Position numbers and translations under genes: made by a program
Notes under the pieces: model-generated
Databases searched by the model: none
What the model was told of the DNA's origin: nothing
Seen by the model: only the letters and a program-made list of their open reading frames with translations
Shown: piece after piece, positions 334 to 5,663 of the stretch
Position numbering within the stretch: position 1 is the stretch's first letter
Layout: every line of letters starts with the position of its first letter
Source of the DNA: a virus
Taxonomy: Duplodnaviria; Heunggongvirae; Uroviricota; Caudoviricetes
Length of the DNA: 5,663 bases
Direction: 5' to 3' (one strand)
IMG/VR virus record: IMGVR_UViG_2703718818_000005
Coordinates: 1-5,663 of that record

Positions 334-1029
334 ATGAAAGAGATGATTTCTGTCGATCATGAAATATCCATGAGTAGTCTGGATTTTCTGAATAACATTA
401 TTAACCCTATCCGGGTTGAGGCAGGGAAACCACCTCATGAACCGCGTAAGTTCCTTGCAAAAATTGAGGACGAACTTGAGCTTGAGGTAACCTGGAAAAA
501 ATTCCGGTTAAACAATAACCAGACAAGAACGGCATACTATGATCTGGATTTTGACCAGATGATGCTCGTTGGCATGAGAGAGTCAAAGGCCGTTCGTCGT
601 TCTGTGCTGGCAAGGCTCAAAGCGATGCATGGTATTCAGATCCCCCGGACTTTACCTGAGGCGTTGCGATTTGCGGCAAAACTGGCAGAACAGAAAGCAG
701 TGCTGGAAAATCAACTGGCAATAGCAGCGCCGAAGGCTGAATTTGTTGATAACTATGTTGAAGCATCTGGTCTGATGGGATTCCGGGAAGTTGCTAAGTT
801 ACTCGGTATCAAAGAAACCGATTTCCGGCTGTTTTTGTTGGAGAACGGAATAATGTATCGCCTCGCTGGAAAAATGACGCCTTACTCGCATCACCTGGAT
901 GCGGGGCGGTTTAGCGTGAAAACGGGCGAGGCGGGCAATGGTCATGCTTTTACGCAGGTTAAATTCACCCCAAAAGGTGTTCAGTGGATTGCTGGTCTGC
1001 TTGCTGCATGGAGAGCTACCGCAGCATGA
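334..1029 (+). CDS. Phage antirepressor-like protein with a C-terminal KilAC (ANT) domain; N-terminal domain unassigned (possibly Rha/AntA-like)
   Basis: 231-aa ORF with ATG at 334 and an AAGGA Shine-Dalgarno 7 nt upstream. The C-terminal half (VAKLLGI...FRLFLLENGIMY...PYSHHLDAGRFSVK...FTQVKFTPKGVQWIAGLL) matches the pattern I recall for KilAC domains (AK-LG, P-x-Q/H, G-F, T-x-KG-x-x-I). Needs an HMM search to confirm. Confidence 0.75.
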   Translation: MKEMISVDHEISMSSLDFLNNIINPIRVEAGKPPHEPRKFLAKIEDELELEVTWKKFRLNNNQTRTAYYDLDFDQMMLVGMRESKAVRRSVLARLKAMHGIQIPRTLPEALRFAAKLAEQKAVLENQLAIAAPKAEFVDNYVEASGLMGFREVAKLLGIKETDFRLFLLENGIMYRLAGKMTPYSHHLDAGRFSVKTGEAGNGHAFTQVKFTPKGVQWIAGLLAAWRATAA

Positions 1030-1121
1030 AGATGATAAAAATGGACTGGAAATTTTTGCTGGTCTGGCTGATTCCGTTTTTATGGGTGGTTGCCCGGTTA
1101 ATTACTGCTATTAATGGGTAA
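1026..1121 (+). CDS. Candidate micro-ORF, 31-aa single-pass membrane peptide (MKMIKMDWKFLLVWLIPFLWVVARLITAING)
   Basis: ATG at 1026 overlaps the stop of the upstream gene (ATGA). It has a Lys-rich N-terminus followed by a ~20-residue hydrophobic helix and a TAA stop at 1119-1121. No clear Shine-Dalgarno; translational coupling would be needed. Not in the ORF track because of its size. Confidence 0.3.
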   Translation: MKMIKMDWKFLLVWLIPFLWVVARLITAING

Positions 1122-1123
1122 AG

Positions 1124-1255
1124 ATGTCAGACAAACTCATAATGCTGGCGAAGGGCCTTTGTGTAATCGTCGGTATTTCATTTTCACTAATGCTGGTTGT
1201 TCTTTTTCTTTCCATAGCCTGGATGGCGTTGAGTTCGGCAGGGCTGGTGGGGTGA
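1124..1255 (+). CDS. Candidate micro-ORF, 43-aa hydrophobic peptide (MSDKLIMLAKGLCVIVGISFSLMLVVLFLSIAWMALSSAGLVG)
   Basis: ATG at 1124 lies 2 nt after the stop of the previous micro-ORF; TGA at 1253-1255. Almost entirely hydrophobic, giving one long or two short transmembrane segments. It competes with the N-terminal part of the 86-aa track ORF 1114-1374 in another frame. Confidence 0.35.
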   Translation: MSDKLIMLAKGLCVIVGISFSLMLVVLFLSIAWMALSSAGLVG

Positions 1256-1257
1256 CA

Positions 1258-1374
1258 GTGACTGATGACGACAATTTATTTAAACAGATGAGTACTGAAT
1301 TTATTCGGGCAACGGCATTTGCCATTCGCATTGTGGCAATTGCGGTTCTAATCCGGGAAATCCGCTGGTGGTGA
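1258..1374 (+). CDS. Candidate third micro-ORF (GTG start at 1258 or ATG at 1288), amphipathic/hydrophobic peptide ending ...MSTEFIRATAFAIRIVAIAVLIREIRWW
   Basis: Same frame as the 86-aa track ORF. GGTGGGG lies just upstream of GTG 1258. Its stop TGA 1372-1374 sits 1 nt before the methylase ATG. Start and reality are uncertain. Confidence 0.2.
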   Translation: MTDDDNLFKQMSTEFIRATAFAIRIVAIAVLIREIRWW

Positions 1375-1375
1375 A

Positions 1376-2143
1376 ATGAATAATAACTCTGCAAAACCGT
1401 TTCTCCCGTGGTTAGGAGGGAAGCGTCGTCTGGCAAAACATATTCTGCCGTTATTTCCTGAGCACACTCTGTATGTGGAACCGTTCTGTGGCGGTGCGGC
1501 ACTGTTCTTTATGAAAAAACCGAGCTGCGCTGAAATCATCAACGATATAAACAGTGATATCGTTAATCTCTACCGTGTGGTGAAGTACCACCAGGAGGAA
1601 TTTTCCCGCCAGTTTCAGTGGATGCTCGCCAGTCGTGAGATGTGGAATGAGGTGATAAATCAGCACACGGAGTACATGACGGATATCCAGCGGGCTGTCC
1701 GTTTCTTTTTTATCCAGAAGTGCGCGTATGGCGGAAGAGCATACAGTCGGGCATTTGGAGTTAAAACTCACAGACCGCAGATAATCCCCGGGAATACAGA
1801 GCAGTTATTGCAGGAAGCCCGTGATCGGCTGGCGCGGGCAACTATTGAACACCTTGACTGGGAGGTCTGTATCGCACGGTATGACCGCCCGACAACGCTG
1901 TTTTACTGCGATCCTCCGTATTGGTTGGATGGTGGTTACGGCATTGATTTTTCATTCTGCAATTATGAGCGCATGGCAGAACTTGCCCGCACAATAAAAG
2001 GCAAAATGATTATATCCCTGAACGATACGCAGGAAATGAGACGATTGTTTGAGGGGATGAATATTCATCATGTTGCTCATCGTTATACTGTACCACGTGG
2101 TAAGACAAGCAGTGTCAGCGAGCTGATAATCTGCAATTTCTGA
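1376..2143 (+). CDS. Dam-family (D12 class) N6-adenine DNA methyltransferase, phage-borne orphan methylase
   Basis: 255-aa ORF. N-terminal PWLGGKRRL, AdoMet-binding motif I FCGGAALFF (about 1485-1511) and catalytic motif IV DPPY at codons 179-182 (nt 1910-1921). No restriction endonuclease partner is visible in the window. Confidence 0.9.
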   Translation: MNNNSAKPFLPWLGGKRRLAKHILPLFPEHTLYVEPFCGGAALFFMKKPSCAEIINDINSDIVNLYRVVKYHQEEFSRQFQWMLASREMWNEVINQHTEYMTDIQRAVRFFFIQKCAYGGRAYSRAFGVKTHRPQIIPGNTEQLLQEARDRLARATIEHLDWEVCIARYDRPTTLFYCDPPYWLDGGYGIDFSFCNYERMAELARTIKGKMIISLNDTQEMRRLFEGMNIHHVAHRYTVPRGKTSSVSELIICNF

Positions 2144-2151
2144 CAGGGGGC

Positions 2152-2628
2152 ATGGTGAGCATAAACCGAATTCTTTCCGCGTTTACTGTTATTCTGCTGG
2201 TGGTCTGTGGTGCGCTTAGTCTGGGGCTGAATCATTACCGCGATAACGCCATCACCTACAAAGCGCAGCGCGATAAAAAAGCCAGAGAGCTGGAACAGGC
2301 GAATGCCACCATTACTGACATGCAGGTGCGCCAGCGTGATGTTGCTGCGCTCGATGCAAAATACTCGAGGGAATTAGCCGATGCGAGAGCTGAAAATGAA
2401 ACTCTGCGCGCTGATGTTGCCGCTGGTCGTAAGCGCCTGCGGATCAACGCCACCTGCTCCGGTACCGTGCGTGAAGCCACCGGCACCTCCGGCGTGGGCA
2501 ATGATGCCGCCGTCGAACTCTCTCCGGTTGCTGGACGAAACGTTCTCGGTATCAGAGACGGAATCATCAGCGACCTGGCTGCATTGAGAATGCTTCAGGA
2601 ATATATCCGCACTCAGTGTATTAACTAG
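2152..2628 (+). CDS. Rz: Rz-like i-spanin (inner-membrane spanin subunit)
   Basis: 158 aa. An N-terminal transmembrane helix (ILSAFTVILLVVCGALSLGL) is followed by NHYRDNAITYKAQRDK...MQVRQRDVAALDAKY...DVAAGRKRL, which is near-colinear with lambda Rz as recalled. GGGGG Shine-Dalgarno before ATG 2152, 8 nt after the methylase stop. Confidence 0.92.
   Translation: MVSINRILSAFTVILLVVCGALSLGLNHYRDNAITYKAQRDKKARELEQANATITDMQVRQRDVAALDAKYSRELADARAENETLRADVAAGRKRLRINATCSGTVREATGTSGVGNDAAVELSPVAGRNVLGIRDGIISDLAALRMLQEYIRTQCIN
2381..2587 (+). CDS. Rz1: Rz1-like o-spanin (outer-membrane lipoprotein), embedded in the +1 frame of Rz
   Basis: 68-aa ORF wholly inside Rz. Signal peptide MRELKMKLCALMLPLVVSAC with lipobox V-S-A-C (Cys codon 2438-2440), then a proline-rich mature part CGSTPPAPVPCVKPPAPPAW that parallels lambda Rz1 CVKPPPPPAW. 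GAGGGA lies 8 nt upstream of ATG 2381; ATG 2396 is an alternative start. Confidence 0.85.
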   Translation: MRELKMKLCALMLPLVVSACGSTPPAPVPCVKPPAPPAWAMMPPSNSLRLLDETFSVSETESSATWLH

Positions 2629-2651
2629 TATTTTTGTTATTCGGAGAATGC

Positions 2652-2864
2652 ATGAAGAAATTACTGGTAACCGTAAAGCCTTTTCAGGGAACAATTCCGT
2701 TCCGTATTTTGCAGCGTGGTCGTGTTCTTGTTGAAGGTTCGTTCAGTGGTAAATGTACGCAATTACACTCCCGGACCTTTCAGGTGAATGCCACGAATGA
2801 AGAGCTAACCGTTGAGTGTACGATGAATGCCGCTAAATGCCGCATGGTATCCGCTGCATTTTGA
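2652..2864 (+). CDS. Hypothetical 70-aa protein between the spanins and cos (MKKLLVTVKPFQGTIPFRILQRGRVLVEGSFSGKCTQLHSRTFQVNATNEELTVECTMNAAKCRMVSAAF)
   Basis: ATG at 2652 with a GGAGAA Shine-Dalgarno 6 nt upstream; the track ORF begins at an in-frame TTG at 2634. No family recognised by eye. Three Cys, no obvious signal peptide. Confidence 0.5.
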   Translation: MKKLLVTVKPFQGTIPFRILQRGRVLVEGSFSGKCTQLHSRTFQVNATNEELTVECTMNAAKCRMVSAAF

Positions 2865-3087
2865 GCGACCTTATTATCCATGCGCGGTATTGTCGCCGTA
2901 TTCCCGTATTAACAGAGACCGCAGCCCGACAGGGAGACTCCTCTGCGCGAGTGTGCGGGGATAATCAAAAACGATACACACCGGGGTTTACCGCGTTAAC
3001 GGAGCGCGGCGTTGTCCCCTCATGGTCGCTGGTCCGGTGCGATGGTGGAAGAAACTGGATTTTGTTGCAACTGATAACCATTATCAT

Positions 3088-3117
3088 TTTCGCGGGTCCT
3101 TTCCGGCGATCCGGGCC
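3088..3117. other. cosQ-like cos-proximal segment upstream of cosN
   Basis: TTTCGCGGGTCCTTTCCGGCGATCCGGGCC is near-identical to the lambda right-end sequence TTTACGGGTCCTTTCCGGTGATCCGACAGG that I recall preceding cosN, where cosQ resides. Exact cosQ boundaries are not determinable from memory. Confidence 0.4.
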
Positions 3118-3139
3118 GTTACGGGGCGGCGACCTCGCG
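3118..3139. other. cosN, terminase nicking site; 12-nt cohesive end GGGCGGCGACCT at 3124-3135
   Basis: GTTACGGGGCGGCGACCTCGCG matches the lambda cosN core as recalled, and the 12-mer at 3124-3135 equals the lambda cohesive end. The following ~25 nt (CGCGCGTTTTCACTATTTATGAGATTTT) also track the lambda left end. It sits immediately upstream of a Nu1/A terminase pair. Confidence 0.85.
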
Positions 3140-3174
3140 CGTTTTCACTATTTATGAGATTTTTTGAGGGGGGT

Positions 3175-3183
3175 GGTTGTTGT
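3175..3183 (+). repeat. R3-like repeat GGTTGTTGT
   Basis: Exact 9-mer, about 50 nt to the right of the cohesive-end start, analogous in position to lambda R3. Confidence 0.5.
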
Positions 3184-3233
3184 TTAATTGTTTGGTATAT
3201 CTAATTGATAAGTAAGGTGAAAATAAAATAAAT

Positions 3234-3242
3234 ACAACAACC
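3234..3242 (-). repeat. R2-like repeat, inverted copy (ACAACAACC on the top strand)
   Basis: Exact reverse complement of GGTTGTTGT, 59 bp from the first copy. Confidence 0.5.
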
Positions 3243-3311
3243 TTACGATGTGTTTTGATGTCGTCAATGCGAAAAATGTCAATGATATCAAATGGTTTTG
3301 CAAAAACACAT

Positions 3312-3320
3312 GGTTGTTGT
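3312..3320 (+). repeat. R1-like repeat GGTTGTTGT
   Basis: Exact 9-mer, 33 bp upstream of the proposed Nu1 start codon. Confidence 0.5.
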
Positions 3321-3352
3321 ATCGCTTTTTATCGATGACTTATGGAGAGGAG

Positions 3353-3859
3353 ATGGCCTTTTTATTGAATAAAAGTGATATGGCCTCCTCCATCGGTATC
3401 TCTGTTCAGGCATTTGATAAATGGGGCGTTCCTCCTGTTGAACGTCGGGGGAGGGAAGTTTTATATGACGTTAAAACTGTACTGGAGATAGATCGCGAGC
3501 GGCGACAACACAATCAGAGAACACCTGATGACGGGGGAGAACTGGAGGAAAGGCTGCTTCGGGCCAGAGCTGAACTGACAGAAGAACAGGCTGTAGCTCA
3601 AAAACTTAAAAATCAGGTAACCGAAGGTAAGCTCATTGATTCAGACTTCTGCGTTTTCGCCCTCAGCAAACTGGCGATGGCATTGTCCAGTACGCTTGAT
3701 TCCATTCCGTTATCCATGCAGCGACAGTTCCCGGATTTAACGCCACGTCATATTGACCATCTGAAAACCCTTATTGCAAAGGGCGCAAATCAGTGTGCGC
3801 GGGCAGGGGATAAATTACCGGATTTGCTGGATGAATATATCAGAGCAACAACTGAATAA
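3353..3859 (+). CDS. nu1: Terminase small subunit, Nu1-like
   Basis: 168 aa from ATG 3353, preceded by GGAGAGGAG. Aligns by eye with lambda Nu1: EVLYD, FCVFALSKLAMALSSTLDSIPLSMQRQFPDLTPRHIDHLK versus lambda FCTFVLSRIAGEIASILDGLPLSVQRRFPELENRHVDFLK, and an EYI motif near the C-terminus. The track ORF start at 3248 is an in-frame upstream extension running into cosB; 3335 is another in-frame ATG without a Shine-Dalgarno. Confidence 0.88.
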   Translation: MAFLLNKSDMASSIGISVQAFDKWGVPPVERRGREVLYDVKTVLEIDRERRQHNQRTPDDGGELEERLLRARAELTEEQAVAQKLKNQVTEGKLIDSDFCVFALSKLAMALSSTLDSIPLSMQRQFPDLTPRHIDHLKTLIAKGANQCARAGDKLPDLLDEYIRATTE

Positions 3860-5663
3860 TATGATGGCTGCCGTTTCGGTTGCGCTGCAGCCTCTGGTCA
3901 GAGTTGTACCGATGACGGCAGTTGAATGGGCTGATCAAAATTATTATTTGCCTAAAGACTCCTCATACGGTGACGGCGAATGGAAAACGCTGCCATTCCA
4001 GATCGCCATCATGAACAGCATGGGGAATGATCAGATCCGCACTGTTAATCTGATTAAATCTGCCCGTGTTGGCTATACAAAGATGTTGCTGGGGGTGGTC
4101 GGGTATTTTATTGAGCATAAATCCCGAAACAGTCTGCTTTTTCAGCCCACGGATTCTGCCGCTGAAGATTTTATGAAGTCTCACGTGGAGGCGACGATTC
4201 GGGACGTGGCATGCCTGAAAGATCTTTCCCCGTGGCTGGGTCGTAAACATCGTGACAATACTCTCACGCTGAAACGCTTTTCATCGGGGGTGGGCTTCTG
4301 GTGCCTGGGTGGTGCGGCAGCAAAAAACTACCGTGAAAAATCCGTGGACGTGGTCTGCTATGACGAACTTTCCTCGTTCGAGCCGGATGTCGAAAAAGAG
4401 GGCTCGCCAACCCTGCTGGGGGATAAGCGTATTGAGGGGTCGGTGTGGCCAAAATCCATTCGCGGCTCGACGCCTAAAATCAAAGGCTCCTGCCAGATCG
4501 AAAAAGCGGCCAACGAGTCGGCGCATTTCATGCGTTTTTATGTGCCCTGCCCGCACTGTGGGGAGGAGCAGTATCTGAAATTTGGCGATGAATCCACGCC
4601 TTTTGGCCTTAAATGGGAGAAGGACAGCCCCGAAAGCGTTTTCTACCTCTGTGAACATCATGGCTGCGTGATCCATCAGTCTGAGCTTGACCAGAGCAAC
4701 GGGCGGTGGATCTGTGAAAATACGGGGATGTGGACCCGTGACGGTCTGACGTTTTTCAGCGCCGCGGATAATGAAATTCCGCCGCCGCGCTCCATCACGT
4801 TCCACATCTGGACGGCGTACAGTCCGTTCACCACCTGGGTACAGATAGTCTATGACTGGCTGGATGCACTGAAAGATCCCAACGGCGTGAAAACCTTTGT
4901 GAACACCACGCTGGGCGAGACCTGGGAAGAGGCCGTGGGCGAAAAACTCGATCACCAGGTACTGATGGATAAGGTTGTGCGTTACACGGCGGCGGTGCCT
5001 GCCCGGGTGGTTTATCTGACGGCGGGCATTGACTCGCAGCGAAACCGTTTTGAGATGTATGTCTGGGGATGGGCACCGGGAGAGGAAGCCTTTCTGGTGG
5101 ATAAAATCATCATTATGGGGCGTCCCGATGAGGAAGAGACGCTGTTACGTGTGGATGCGGCGATCAACAAAAAATACCGTCATGCAGACGGAACCGAAAT
5201 GACCATTTCCCGTGTCTGCTGGGACACCGGGGGGATCGATGGCGAAATCGTTTATCAGCGGTCAAAAAAACACGGTGTTTTCCGGGTGCTGCCGGTAAAA
5301 GGCGCATCTGTCTATGGCAAGCCGGTGATCACCATGCCAAAAACCCGCAATCAGCGGGGCGTGTATCTGTGTGAAGTGGGGACGGACACCGCAAAAGAAA
5401 TTCTCTATGCCCGTATGAAAGCCGATCCCACGCCTGCGGATGAAGCCACGTCGTATGCCATCCGTTTTCCTGATGATCCGGAGATTTTTTCGCAGACAGA
5501 GGCGCAGCAACTGGTGGCGGAGGAGCTGGTGGAGAAGTGGGAAAAAGGAAAGATGCGTCTGTTGTGGGATAACAAAAAGCGGCGTAACGAAGCGCTGGAC
5601 TGCCTGGTGTATGCCTACGCGGCATTACGTGTGTCTGTGCAACGCTGGCAGCTTGATCTGGCT
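3831..5663 (+). CDS. A: Terminase large subunit, gpA-like; 3' end beyond the window
   Basis: Open frame from ATG 3831 to the window end with no stop (611 codons). It starts MNISEQQ (lambda A starts MNISNSQ) and contains the P-loop-like KSARVGYTK (nt 4056-4082), VDVVCYDEL, the Cys/His cluster CPHCGEEQYLKFGD...FYLCEHHGC, HIWTAYSPFTTWVQIV and KKRRNEALDC, all colinear with lambda gpA as recalled. It overlaps the Nu1 3' end by 29 nt. Confidence 0.93.
   Translation, partial: MNISEQQLNNMMAAVSVALQPLVRVVPMTAVEWADQNYYLPKDSSYGDGEWKTLPFQIAIMNSMGNDQIRTVNLIKSARVGYTKMLLGVVGYFIEHKSRNSLLFQPTDSAAEDFMKSHVEATIRDVACLKDLSPWLGRKHRDNTLTLKRFSSGVGFWCLGGAAAKNYREKSVDVVCYDELSSFEPDVEKEGSPTLLGDKRIEGSVWPKSIRGSTPKIKGSCQIEKAANESAHFMRFYVPCPHCGEEQYLKFGDESTPFGLKWEKDSPESVFYLCEHHGCVIHQSELDQSNGRWICENTGMWTRDGLTFFSAADNEIPPPRSITFHIWTAYSPFTTWVQIVYDWLDALKDPNGVKTFVNTTLGETWEEAVGEKLDHQVLMDKVVRYTAAVPARVVYLTAGIDSQRNRFEMYVWGWAPGEEAFLVDKIIIMGRPDEEETLLRVDAAINKKYRHADGTEMTISRVCWDTGGIDGEIVYQRSKKHGVFRVLPVKGASVYGKPVITMPKTRNQRGVYLCEVGTDTAKEILYARMKADPTPADEATSYAIRFPDDPEIFSQTEAQQLVAEELVEKWEKGKMRLLWDNKKRRNEALDCLVYAYAALRVSVQRWQLDLA

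Follow-up and report, generated by a model that had tools for sequence, protein, structure and literature searches.

What does a lambdoid prophage encode in the interval between its spanin genes and its packaging genes, and what would such a gene be for? The stretch of DNA analysed here (the window; 5,663 nucleotides, the start of IMG/VR record IMGVR_UViG_2703718818_000005) covers a junction in the late region of an E. coli lambdoid prophage, and at that place it holds a 70-aa open reading frame on the plus strand (Table 1). A preliminary description, made from the letters alone, had placed this frame in no family and had pictured it in a moron position, that of lambda bor; morons, it added, are often expressed in the lysogen from their own promoter, and such positions often carry genes for host interaction or defence.

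Table 1. Features of the window, with the evidence for each where the analysis gives it.
Feature	Position	Strand	Remarks
Endolysin, last codons	1-60		
Ant/KilAC antirepressor	334-1029		
Small ORFs matching phrog_4906 and phrog_3246	1114-1374		
Dam-type D12 methyltransferase	1376-2143	+	
Rz (i-spanin)	2152-2628	+	Pfam Phage_lysis, E 3e-39; phrog_13; left boundary of the slot
Rz1 (o-spanin lipoprotein)	2381-2587	+	Pfam Rz1, E 7e-21; embedded in Rz, +1 frame
Shine-Dalgarno GGAGA	2643-2647	+	from sequence; within the leader of about 25 nt, TTTTTGTTATYCGGAGAATGC, that moves with the target ORF
Target ORF	2652-2864	+	coding gene, 70 aa; predicted soluble all-beta protein; phrog_2571 member
Structured RNA-like element, about 190 nt	2886-3072	+	conserved, unannotated; right boundary of the slot; outside the ORF
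cosN (presumed), GGGCGGCGACCT	3124-3135	.	start of the phage-21-type packaging module; from sequence
Nu1-type small terminase	3353-3859		followed by the large terminase

Several neighbours frame the target. The two small upstream ORFs overlap on the plus strand in different frames (1114-1374 and 1124-1255; phrog_3246 at E 2e-36 and phrog_4906 at E 2e-23), and no more than one of them is likely to be genuine where they overlap. The D12-class Dam methyltransferase gene is an insertion in the lysis cassette, with the antirepressor gene on one side and Rz on the other, and among the matches listed only E. coli IBS28 spans its junction. A 488-nt non-coding stretch lies 3' of the target and includes the segment that we take to be cosN from the lambda cohesive end; the GpA-type large terminase beyond it is about 92% identical to that of phage 21.

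An open frame of 70 codons is by itself weak evidence for a gene; the chance of one is (61/64)^70, about 3.5% per frame by our own estimate. The target stands above chance because its frame, start and Shine-Dalgarno are conserved, because dN/dS stays below 0.5 in deep comparisons, and because its predicted fold is confident. Read from the ATG at 2652, in a frame open since TTG 2634, to the stop codon at 2862-2864, it encodes MKKLLVTVKPFQGTIPFRILQRGRVLVEGSFSGKCTQLHSRTFQVNATNEELTVECTMNAAKCRMVSAAF, and the good Shine-Dalgarno claimed in the preliminary description is there, with GGAG 5 nt from the start. The three cysteines claimed are likewise present (Cys35, Cys56 and Cys63), and the sequence bears out the absence of a signal peptide or transmembrane segment: the longest hydrophobic run is LLVTV, and the N-terminus, MKKLLVTVKPFQGT, has neither a hydrophobic core nor a lipobox Cys. 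An overlapping gene in another frame can be set aside, as the antisense ORFs that overlap the target are all of 33 aa or less, and two plus-strand ORFs in other frames (2827-2964, 45 aa; 2837-3157, 106 aa) share with it no more than its last 38 nt.

Among 5.8 billion proteins, a word-indexed search picked out 64 relatives that are 58-100% identical to the target. Each comes from E. coli or Salmonella and is annotated as hypothetical, the label that PGAP also gives to the product of this ORF (WP_000735655.1). Start, Shine-Dalgarno and frame are kept in 34/34 distinct DNA alleles from the collected loci, and every deep allele pair gives a dN/dS of about 0.16-0.5 with an excess of third-position changes (Nei-Gojobori); the frame is thus conserved in related phages, a point on which the preliminary description had let its own reading depend. 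Relatives are usually 74 aa long and end in LQPVC. The window copy differs from most of them, L001 and L004 for instance, in the in-frame loss of 12 bp, ACAGCCAGTGTG, near 2855-2864, which turns ...SAALQPVC* into ...SAAF* and shortens the protein from 74 to 70 aa. This exact 70-aa variant occurs on 211 public contigs, and other alleles carry different small indels in the same C-terminal tail.

Beyond these close relatives, 45 matches at E <= 0.001 emerged when 1.84 billion cluster representatives were scanned in full with HMMER. This remote family includes proteins of 70-145 aa at 25-40% identity in Xenorhabdus, Yersinia and Salmonella, as well as multi-domain versions of 169-280 aa, and it keeps a protein-like pattern of conservation at that distance. 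In the wider alignment the end of the domain coincides with that of the window protein (...SISAAF / ...VSAAF), and therefore the 12-bp deletion takes off only a tail, beyond the last strand. None of the cysteines is kept in the wider family, which removes metal or disulfide chemistry based on them as a conserved function.

These comparisons also bear on whether the frame is decaying or non-functional, or stays open merely because an overlapping RNA or DNA element is under constraint. The deletion at the 3' end of the window copy, the frameshifted or fused versions in public data (P0003, P0011, L006) and a dN/dS above 1 in one lineage would all suit such a reading. Against it stand the constraint seen over all deep pairs, the protein-like remote family and its common end point with the trimmed protein, the confident AlphaFold2 fold and the lack of any Rfam match, and we regard decay or a borrowed frame as very improbable. 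The target ORF is a genuine conserved prophage gene, catalogued yet uncharacterised.

The lack of a family placement holds for Pfam and NCBIfam, neither of which has a match, and fails for PHROG: residues 1-70 align with profile positions 100-169 of phrog_2571 (E 2.8e-27, 96.6 bits). The match covers the whole window protein, and the remote relatives from Xenorhabdus, Yersinia and Salmonella fall in the same family, to which PHROG assigns no function. The profile has 291 columns because some members carry extra N- and C-terminal domains, so that the window protein corresponds to the central domain alone. The 280-aa P0073 (L103/L104, 5001-5843), for instance, has an additional helical N-terminal domain and a C-terminal domain of about 120 aa, and its gene stands after Rz and a DUF4406 gene; P0066 and P0072 have other C-terminal PHROG domains attached. 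Within these searches phrog_2571 is a phage-specific family, confined to Enterobacterales prophages. Other resources gave little: the window protein and five relatives matched 0 PADLOC-DB families, two profile searches of PDB sequences stayed at chance level (E 0.97, and E 0.039 over 23 residues), and a literature search turned up no papers on WP_000735655, A0A0D6ZJZ6, phrog_2571 or the gene downstream of Rz. A scan of GTDB representative genomes found no copy of the target, probably because the species representatives lack these prophages.

Structure prediction, which the preliminary description had proposed as a check, produced a confident small all-beta model: from an alignment of 18 sequences AlphaFold2 builds seven strands with a single short helix (pLDDT 92, pTM 0.77). 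The product is predicted to be a seven-stranded beta-sandwich of 70-74 aa without an export signal. Conserved positions (F17, Q21, G23, G33-K34, S40-R41 and V45) lie in strands and turns of the first sheet, and the variable parts are the loops and the C-terminal third. In the model, the fold is a generic small sandwich without an informative neighbour.

Genomic context is more telling. Members of the close family lie downstream of Rz in every locus for which upstream DNA is available, 23 nt from the Rz stop in 55 loci and overlapping it by 4 nt (ATGA) in 21. Four loci have a longer gap (27, 85 or about 440 nt) and retain the same leader with its Shine-Dalgarno; the leader is common to the 55 loci with the 23-nt spacer and to those with the 440-nt insertion. 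That insertion (L093, 3559-4000; L099, 3707-4000) contains motifs of an A-run plus hairpin, terminator-like on the opposite strand, and may hold a small opposite-strand gene or sRNA. To the right of the ORF the packaging genes differ: a lambda/21-type Nu1+A module in the window, RM14516 and Salmonella; YnfO, HNH and Terminase_2/TerL in PPyecE_EH1910, Stx2_EH2201, O157:H7 and O55:H7; and a DUF1441+GpA module in strain 2013C-4991. Since it is found next to three different terminase modules, the ORF travels with the lysis module and not with the packaging module.

The gene is common and patchy. It is present in 1244/5426 complete E. coli genomes (23%), in up to six copies per genome, as against 4864 genomes with a match to the Rz-to-Nu1 region (window 2100-3400), and its wide spread extends to pathogenic lineages, O157:H7, O145 and O55:H7 among them. 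Remote members occur between Q and the holin gene in Salmonella (L089-L091, L106) and Xenorhabdus (L092), the 280-aa version occupies the post-Rz position, and one Yersinia homologue lies in the early region beside ParDE. Members of phrog_2571 are thus nearly always in two accessory slots that flank the lysis genes, Q-to-holin and Rz-to-terminase. In the same Xenorhabdus locus the gene directly after Rz (3699-3941) encodes an 80-aa protein with a weak Pfam match to the Acb2/Tad1 hairpin, and is a possible anti-CBASS/Thoeris sponge.

What else can occupy the position after Rz? The most conserved 37-mer of the RNA-like element 3' of the ORF retrieved 119 IMG/VR loci, a sample blind to the ORF, in which 106 Rz-to-element intervals were usable. 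Of these, 27 are empty (median gap 13 nt), 17 hold the target ORF, 15 rha and 12 bor, and the other 35 include genes for DUF4406, DUF6979, KilA-N/ORF11CD3 and a ParE-like toxin. The order Rz-rha-element is found in P13374 and ES18, and PhiR5_1 and Sakai Sp15 have the slot without the target. The lambda-like ev207 and a 933W-like Stx phage have bor in this interval, on the opposite strand, which substantiates the earlier assignment of the position to the bor slot, and the presence or absence of the ORF across related prophages, also proposed as a check, is plain from the counts. The target ORF is one of the interchangeable cargoes that the Rz-to-element slot can take. The intervals also give the bor slot an operational definition, as the stretch that runs from Rz to the conserved RNA-like element.

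Cargo status raises the question of whether the gene is a moron in the full sense. By the definition of Juhala and Hendrix a moron is an extra gene between elements adjacent in related phages, and the empty intervals show the target to be such an insertion. The definition also asks for a flanking promoter and terminator, and a scan for consensus sequences around 2600-2900 found neither, though the scan was crude and therefore not decisive, and a promoter inside Rz could escape it. Because the gene lies on the strand of the late operon, 23 nt from Rz or overlapping it by ATGA, with its own Shine-Dalgarno and no promoter- or terminator-like site at its flanks, late-operon expression is more likely than expression in the lysogen. 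The gene would be co-transcribed from pR' in the Q-antiterminated late transcript and translated from its own Shine-Dalgarno or by coupling to Rz, and the protein would be a cytoplasmic product of late lytic growth and not of the lysogenic state. A strict lysogenic-conversion moron like bor, expressed in the lysogen from its own promoter to the benefit of the host, would fit a gene that sits in exactly the slot in which other lambdoid phages hold bor and that is common in pathogenic E. coli. The strand, the tight junction with Rz and the scan all speak against it; the product also lacks an export signal, so that surface or secreted roles like those of Bor or Lom are unlikely, and we think a strict moron quite unlikely overall. 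Of the preliminary description, then, the observation itself stands, along with the slot and the lack of a Pfam placement; the moron-type expression in the lysogen finds no support.

The element that closes the slot on the right, directly 3' of the ORF, may outrank the ORF in interest. It is nearly invariant among phages whose flanks differ. Four different packaging modules are found downstream of it, and on its other side lies a cargo slot prone to recombination, whose right limit it fixes. Phage records with the element number 398, those of 933W-type Stx phages and Salmonella ES18 among them, and it is present in 2891/5426 complete E. coli genomes, more than half, in up to 9 copies; among the genome matches listed, no annotated feature lies under it. 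RNAalifold places 41 pairs in 7 helices over 44 element copies less than 96% identical, with standard pairs in 97.7% of cells, against 31-61% when the partners are slid. Compensatory changes occur at 11 pairs, compared with 4.4 +/- 1.3 in shuffles, a level reached by 0/500. Covariation in the alignment supports the reading of the element as a structured RNA, and the many U-A/U-G and C-G/U-G alternations argue for the plus strand, that is, for an RNA in the sense of the late transcript. Rfam (E <= 1) and ARAGORN find nothing in the window, and AgvB, AsxR, STnc100 and Esr41, all of them Rfam families, are rejected as its identity by the same search. The crude consensus scan found no promoter or terminator with the element, and the interval between ECs2964 and ECs2965 is absent from the Hfq-CLIP supplement of PMC4104026. 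One locus carries the element twice (L119, 5124-5160 and 6074-6110, 950 nt apart) and in another about 1.26 kb of inserted DNA divides it (L022, 4226-4298 / 5563-5691), which suggests that it may serve as a recombination or insertion point.

What the target protein does must be sought in its evolution and its position. The O55:H7 CB9615-type allele (P0016/P0014) differs from the window allele by 17 non-synonymous changes and 1 synonymous change, and 15/17 nucleotide differences affect the first or second position of a codon. Outside the ORF, the DNA on either side shows only 85% identity between the window and the O55:H7-type locus, and so has diverged further than the ORF itself; therefore the alleles share a recent ancestor and have since gained amino-acid changes. 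Measured against strict neutrality the 17:1 excess is marginal (binomial p about 0.05, our own calculation); set beside a dN/dS of about 0.3 for the family as a whole it is clear, and it is confined to one lineage. Within this lineage, L097 and L232 differ from the window ORF by 13-17 non-synonymous and 1-6 synonymous changes, almost none at third positions. Adenine-specific mutagenesis of the kind driven by a DGR can be dismissed as the cause, with only 7/17 changes at A. Across alleles the net charge runs from about +6 in the window to about -2 in P0047 (our own count). The burst of replacements fits episodic diversifying selection, as in binders of variable antagonists, although relaxed constraint in the O55:H7 lineage may instead account for it.

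Could the product be an accessory of lysis, modulating holin timing, endolysin or spanin action, and kept beside Rz for co-expression? The tight linkage to Rz might mean just that. However, the gene is missing from most prophages with closely related Rz, as in the empty intervals and in Sakai Sp15, the same slot houses the unrelated bor, rha, ParE-like toxin and DUF4406 genes, and one homologue is the early-region gene next to ParDE. Spanins act in the envelope, whereas this protein has no signal peptide or transmembrane segment; a lipoprotein signal and a muralytic domain are likewise absent from it, and it matches no lysis PHROG or Pfam family. The match to XepA is no better than those to dozens of unrelated sandwiches. 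We therefore hold a lysis-accessory role to be unlikely, though it ranks second among the functions considered.

The explanation that we favour, at about an even chance of being right, is an accessory cargo gene for a cytoplasmic binding protein that is made late and acts in conflict between phage and host or between phages. The protein would be dispensable for lysis and packaging, and would most likely serve as a small module for binding a variable partner, either a host factor such as an immunity component or the protein of a competing phage. Binding to a variable partner would explain alleles that vary at the surface, flip in charge and evolve fast in episodes. A conflict role is preferred because the pattern of evolution, the patchy distribution and the location in a cargo slot point the same way; the Xenorhabdus gene with the weak Acb2/Tad1-hairpin match, in the same slot after Rz, was also counted for conflict-type evolution. 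Several observations weigh on the other side: no homology links the family to any function, the PADLOC, Pfam and NCBIfam searches are empty, the non-synonymous excess is limited to one lineage at its marginal p, and the gene is placed late. Anti-defence genes are usually early genes. That the family forms a new class of small, late-expressed factor of counter-defence or inter-phage competition, under episodic diversifying selection, is a stronger claim and a fairly unlikely one; if true, about a quarter of complete E. coli genomes, including those with EHEC O157:H7 prophages, would carry such a conflict factor.

The unplaced ORF has become a defined member of an uncharacterised phage family, with a confident predicted fold and a clear cargo-slot context, and its evolution gives a hint of an arms race. 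Its frequency in complete E. coli genomes, often in Shiga-toxin prophages, makes it a reasonable candidate for functional screens of accessory genes.

How does the protein compare with systems that are known? Among phage beta-sandwiches, the comparison was with the FN3/Ig-like domains of the tail-tip protein J (FNIII-A_GpJ; PDB 8iyk_J). A Pfam signal for gpJ FNIII-A (PF24801) appears in 3/18 relatives, at a best E of 0.02, and is absent from the window protein; hhalign against the FNIII-A domain of Sakai Sp15 J gives a probability of 0.8%, and homology was rejected. Those are domains of a virion protein, unlike the target, which is free-standing and encoded in the lysis region. The scores against CBM35/36/6, LecB, the PNGase F domain and C1q-like jelly-rolls indicate only a generic likeness of fold (identity 5-19%), and these carbohydrate-binding, lectin and C1q-like sandwiches are about twice the size of the target and offer no transferable ligand-binding residues. 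Comparison with characterised inhibitors (Acr, Acb, Tad, Gad and others), made without a dedicated inhibitor library, gave no PDB sequence match and no specific fold match. With the counter-defence sponges of the Acb2/Tad1 type, for which no similarity of sequence or fold to the target was found, the analogy is one of position and size only; they are alike in being small, lying in an accessory slot, and having a patchy distribution and fast evolution. Lambda Bor, an exported lipoprotein encoded on the opposite strand, is the counterpart in place. The target is read in the direction of the late operon, lacks both a signal peptide and a lipobox, and shares no sequence similarity with Bor/Iss proteins (no Pfam Bor match), yet the two occupy the same slot, with Rz to the left and the 190-nt element to the right, and, like bor, the target is probably dispensable cargo.
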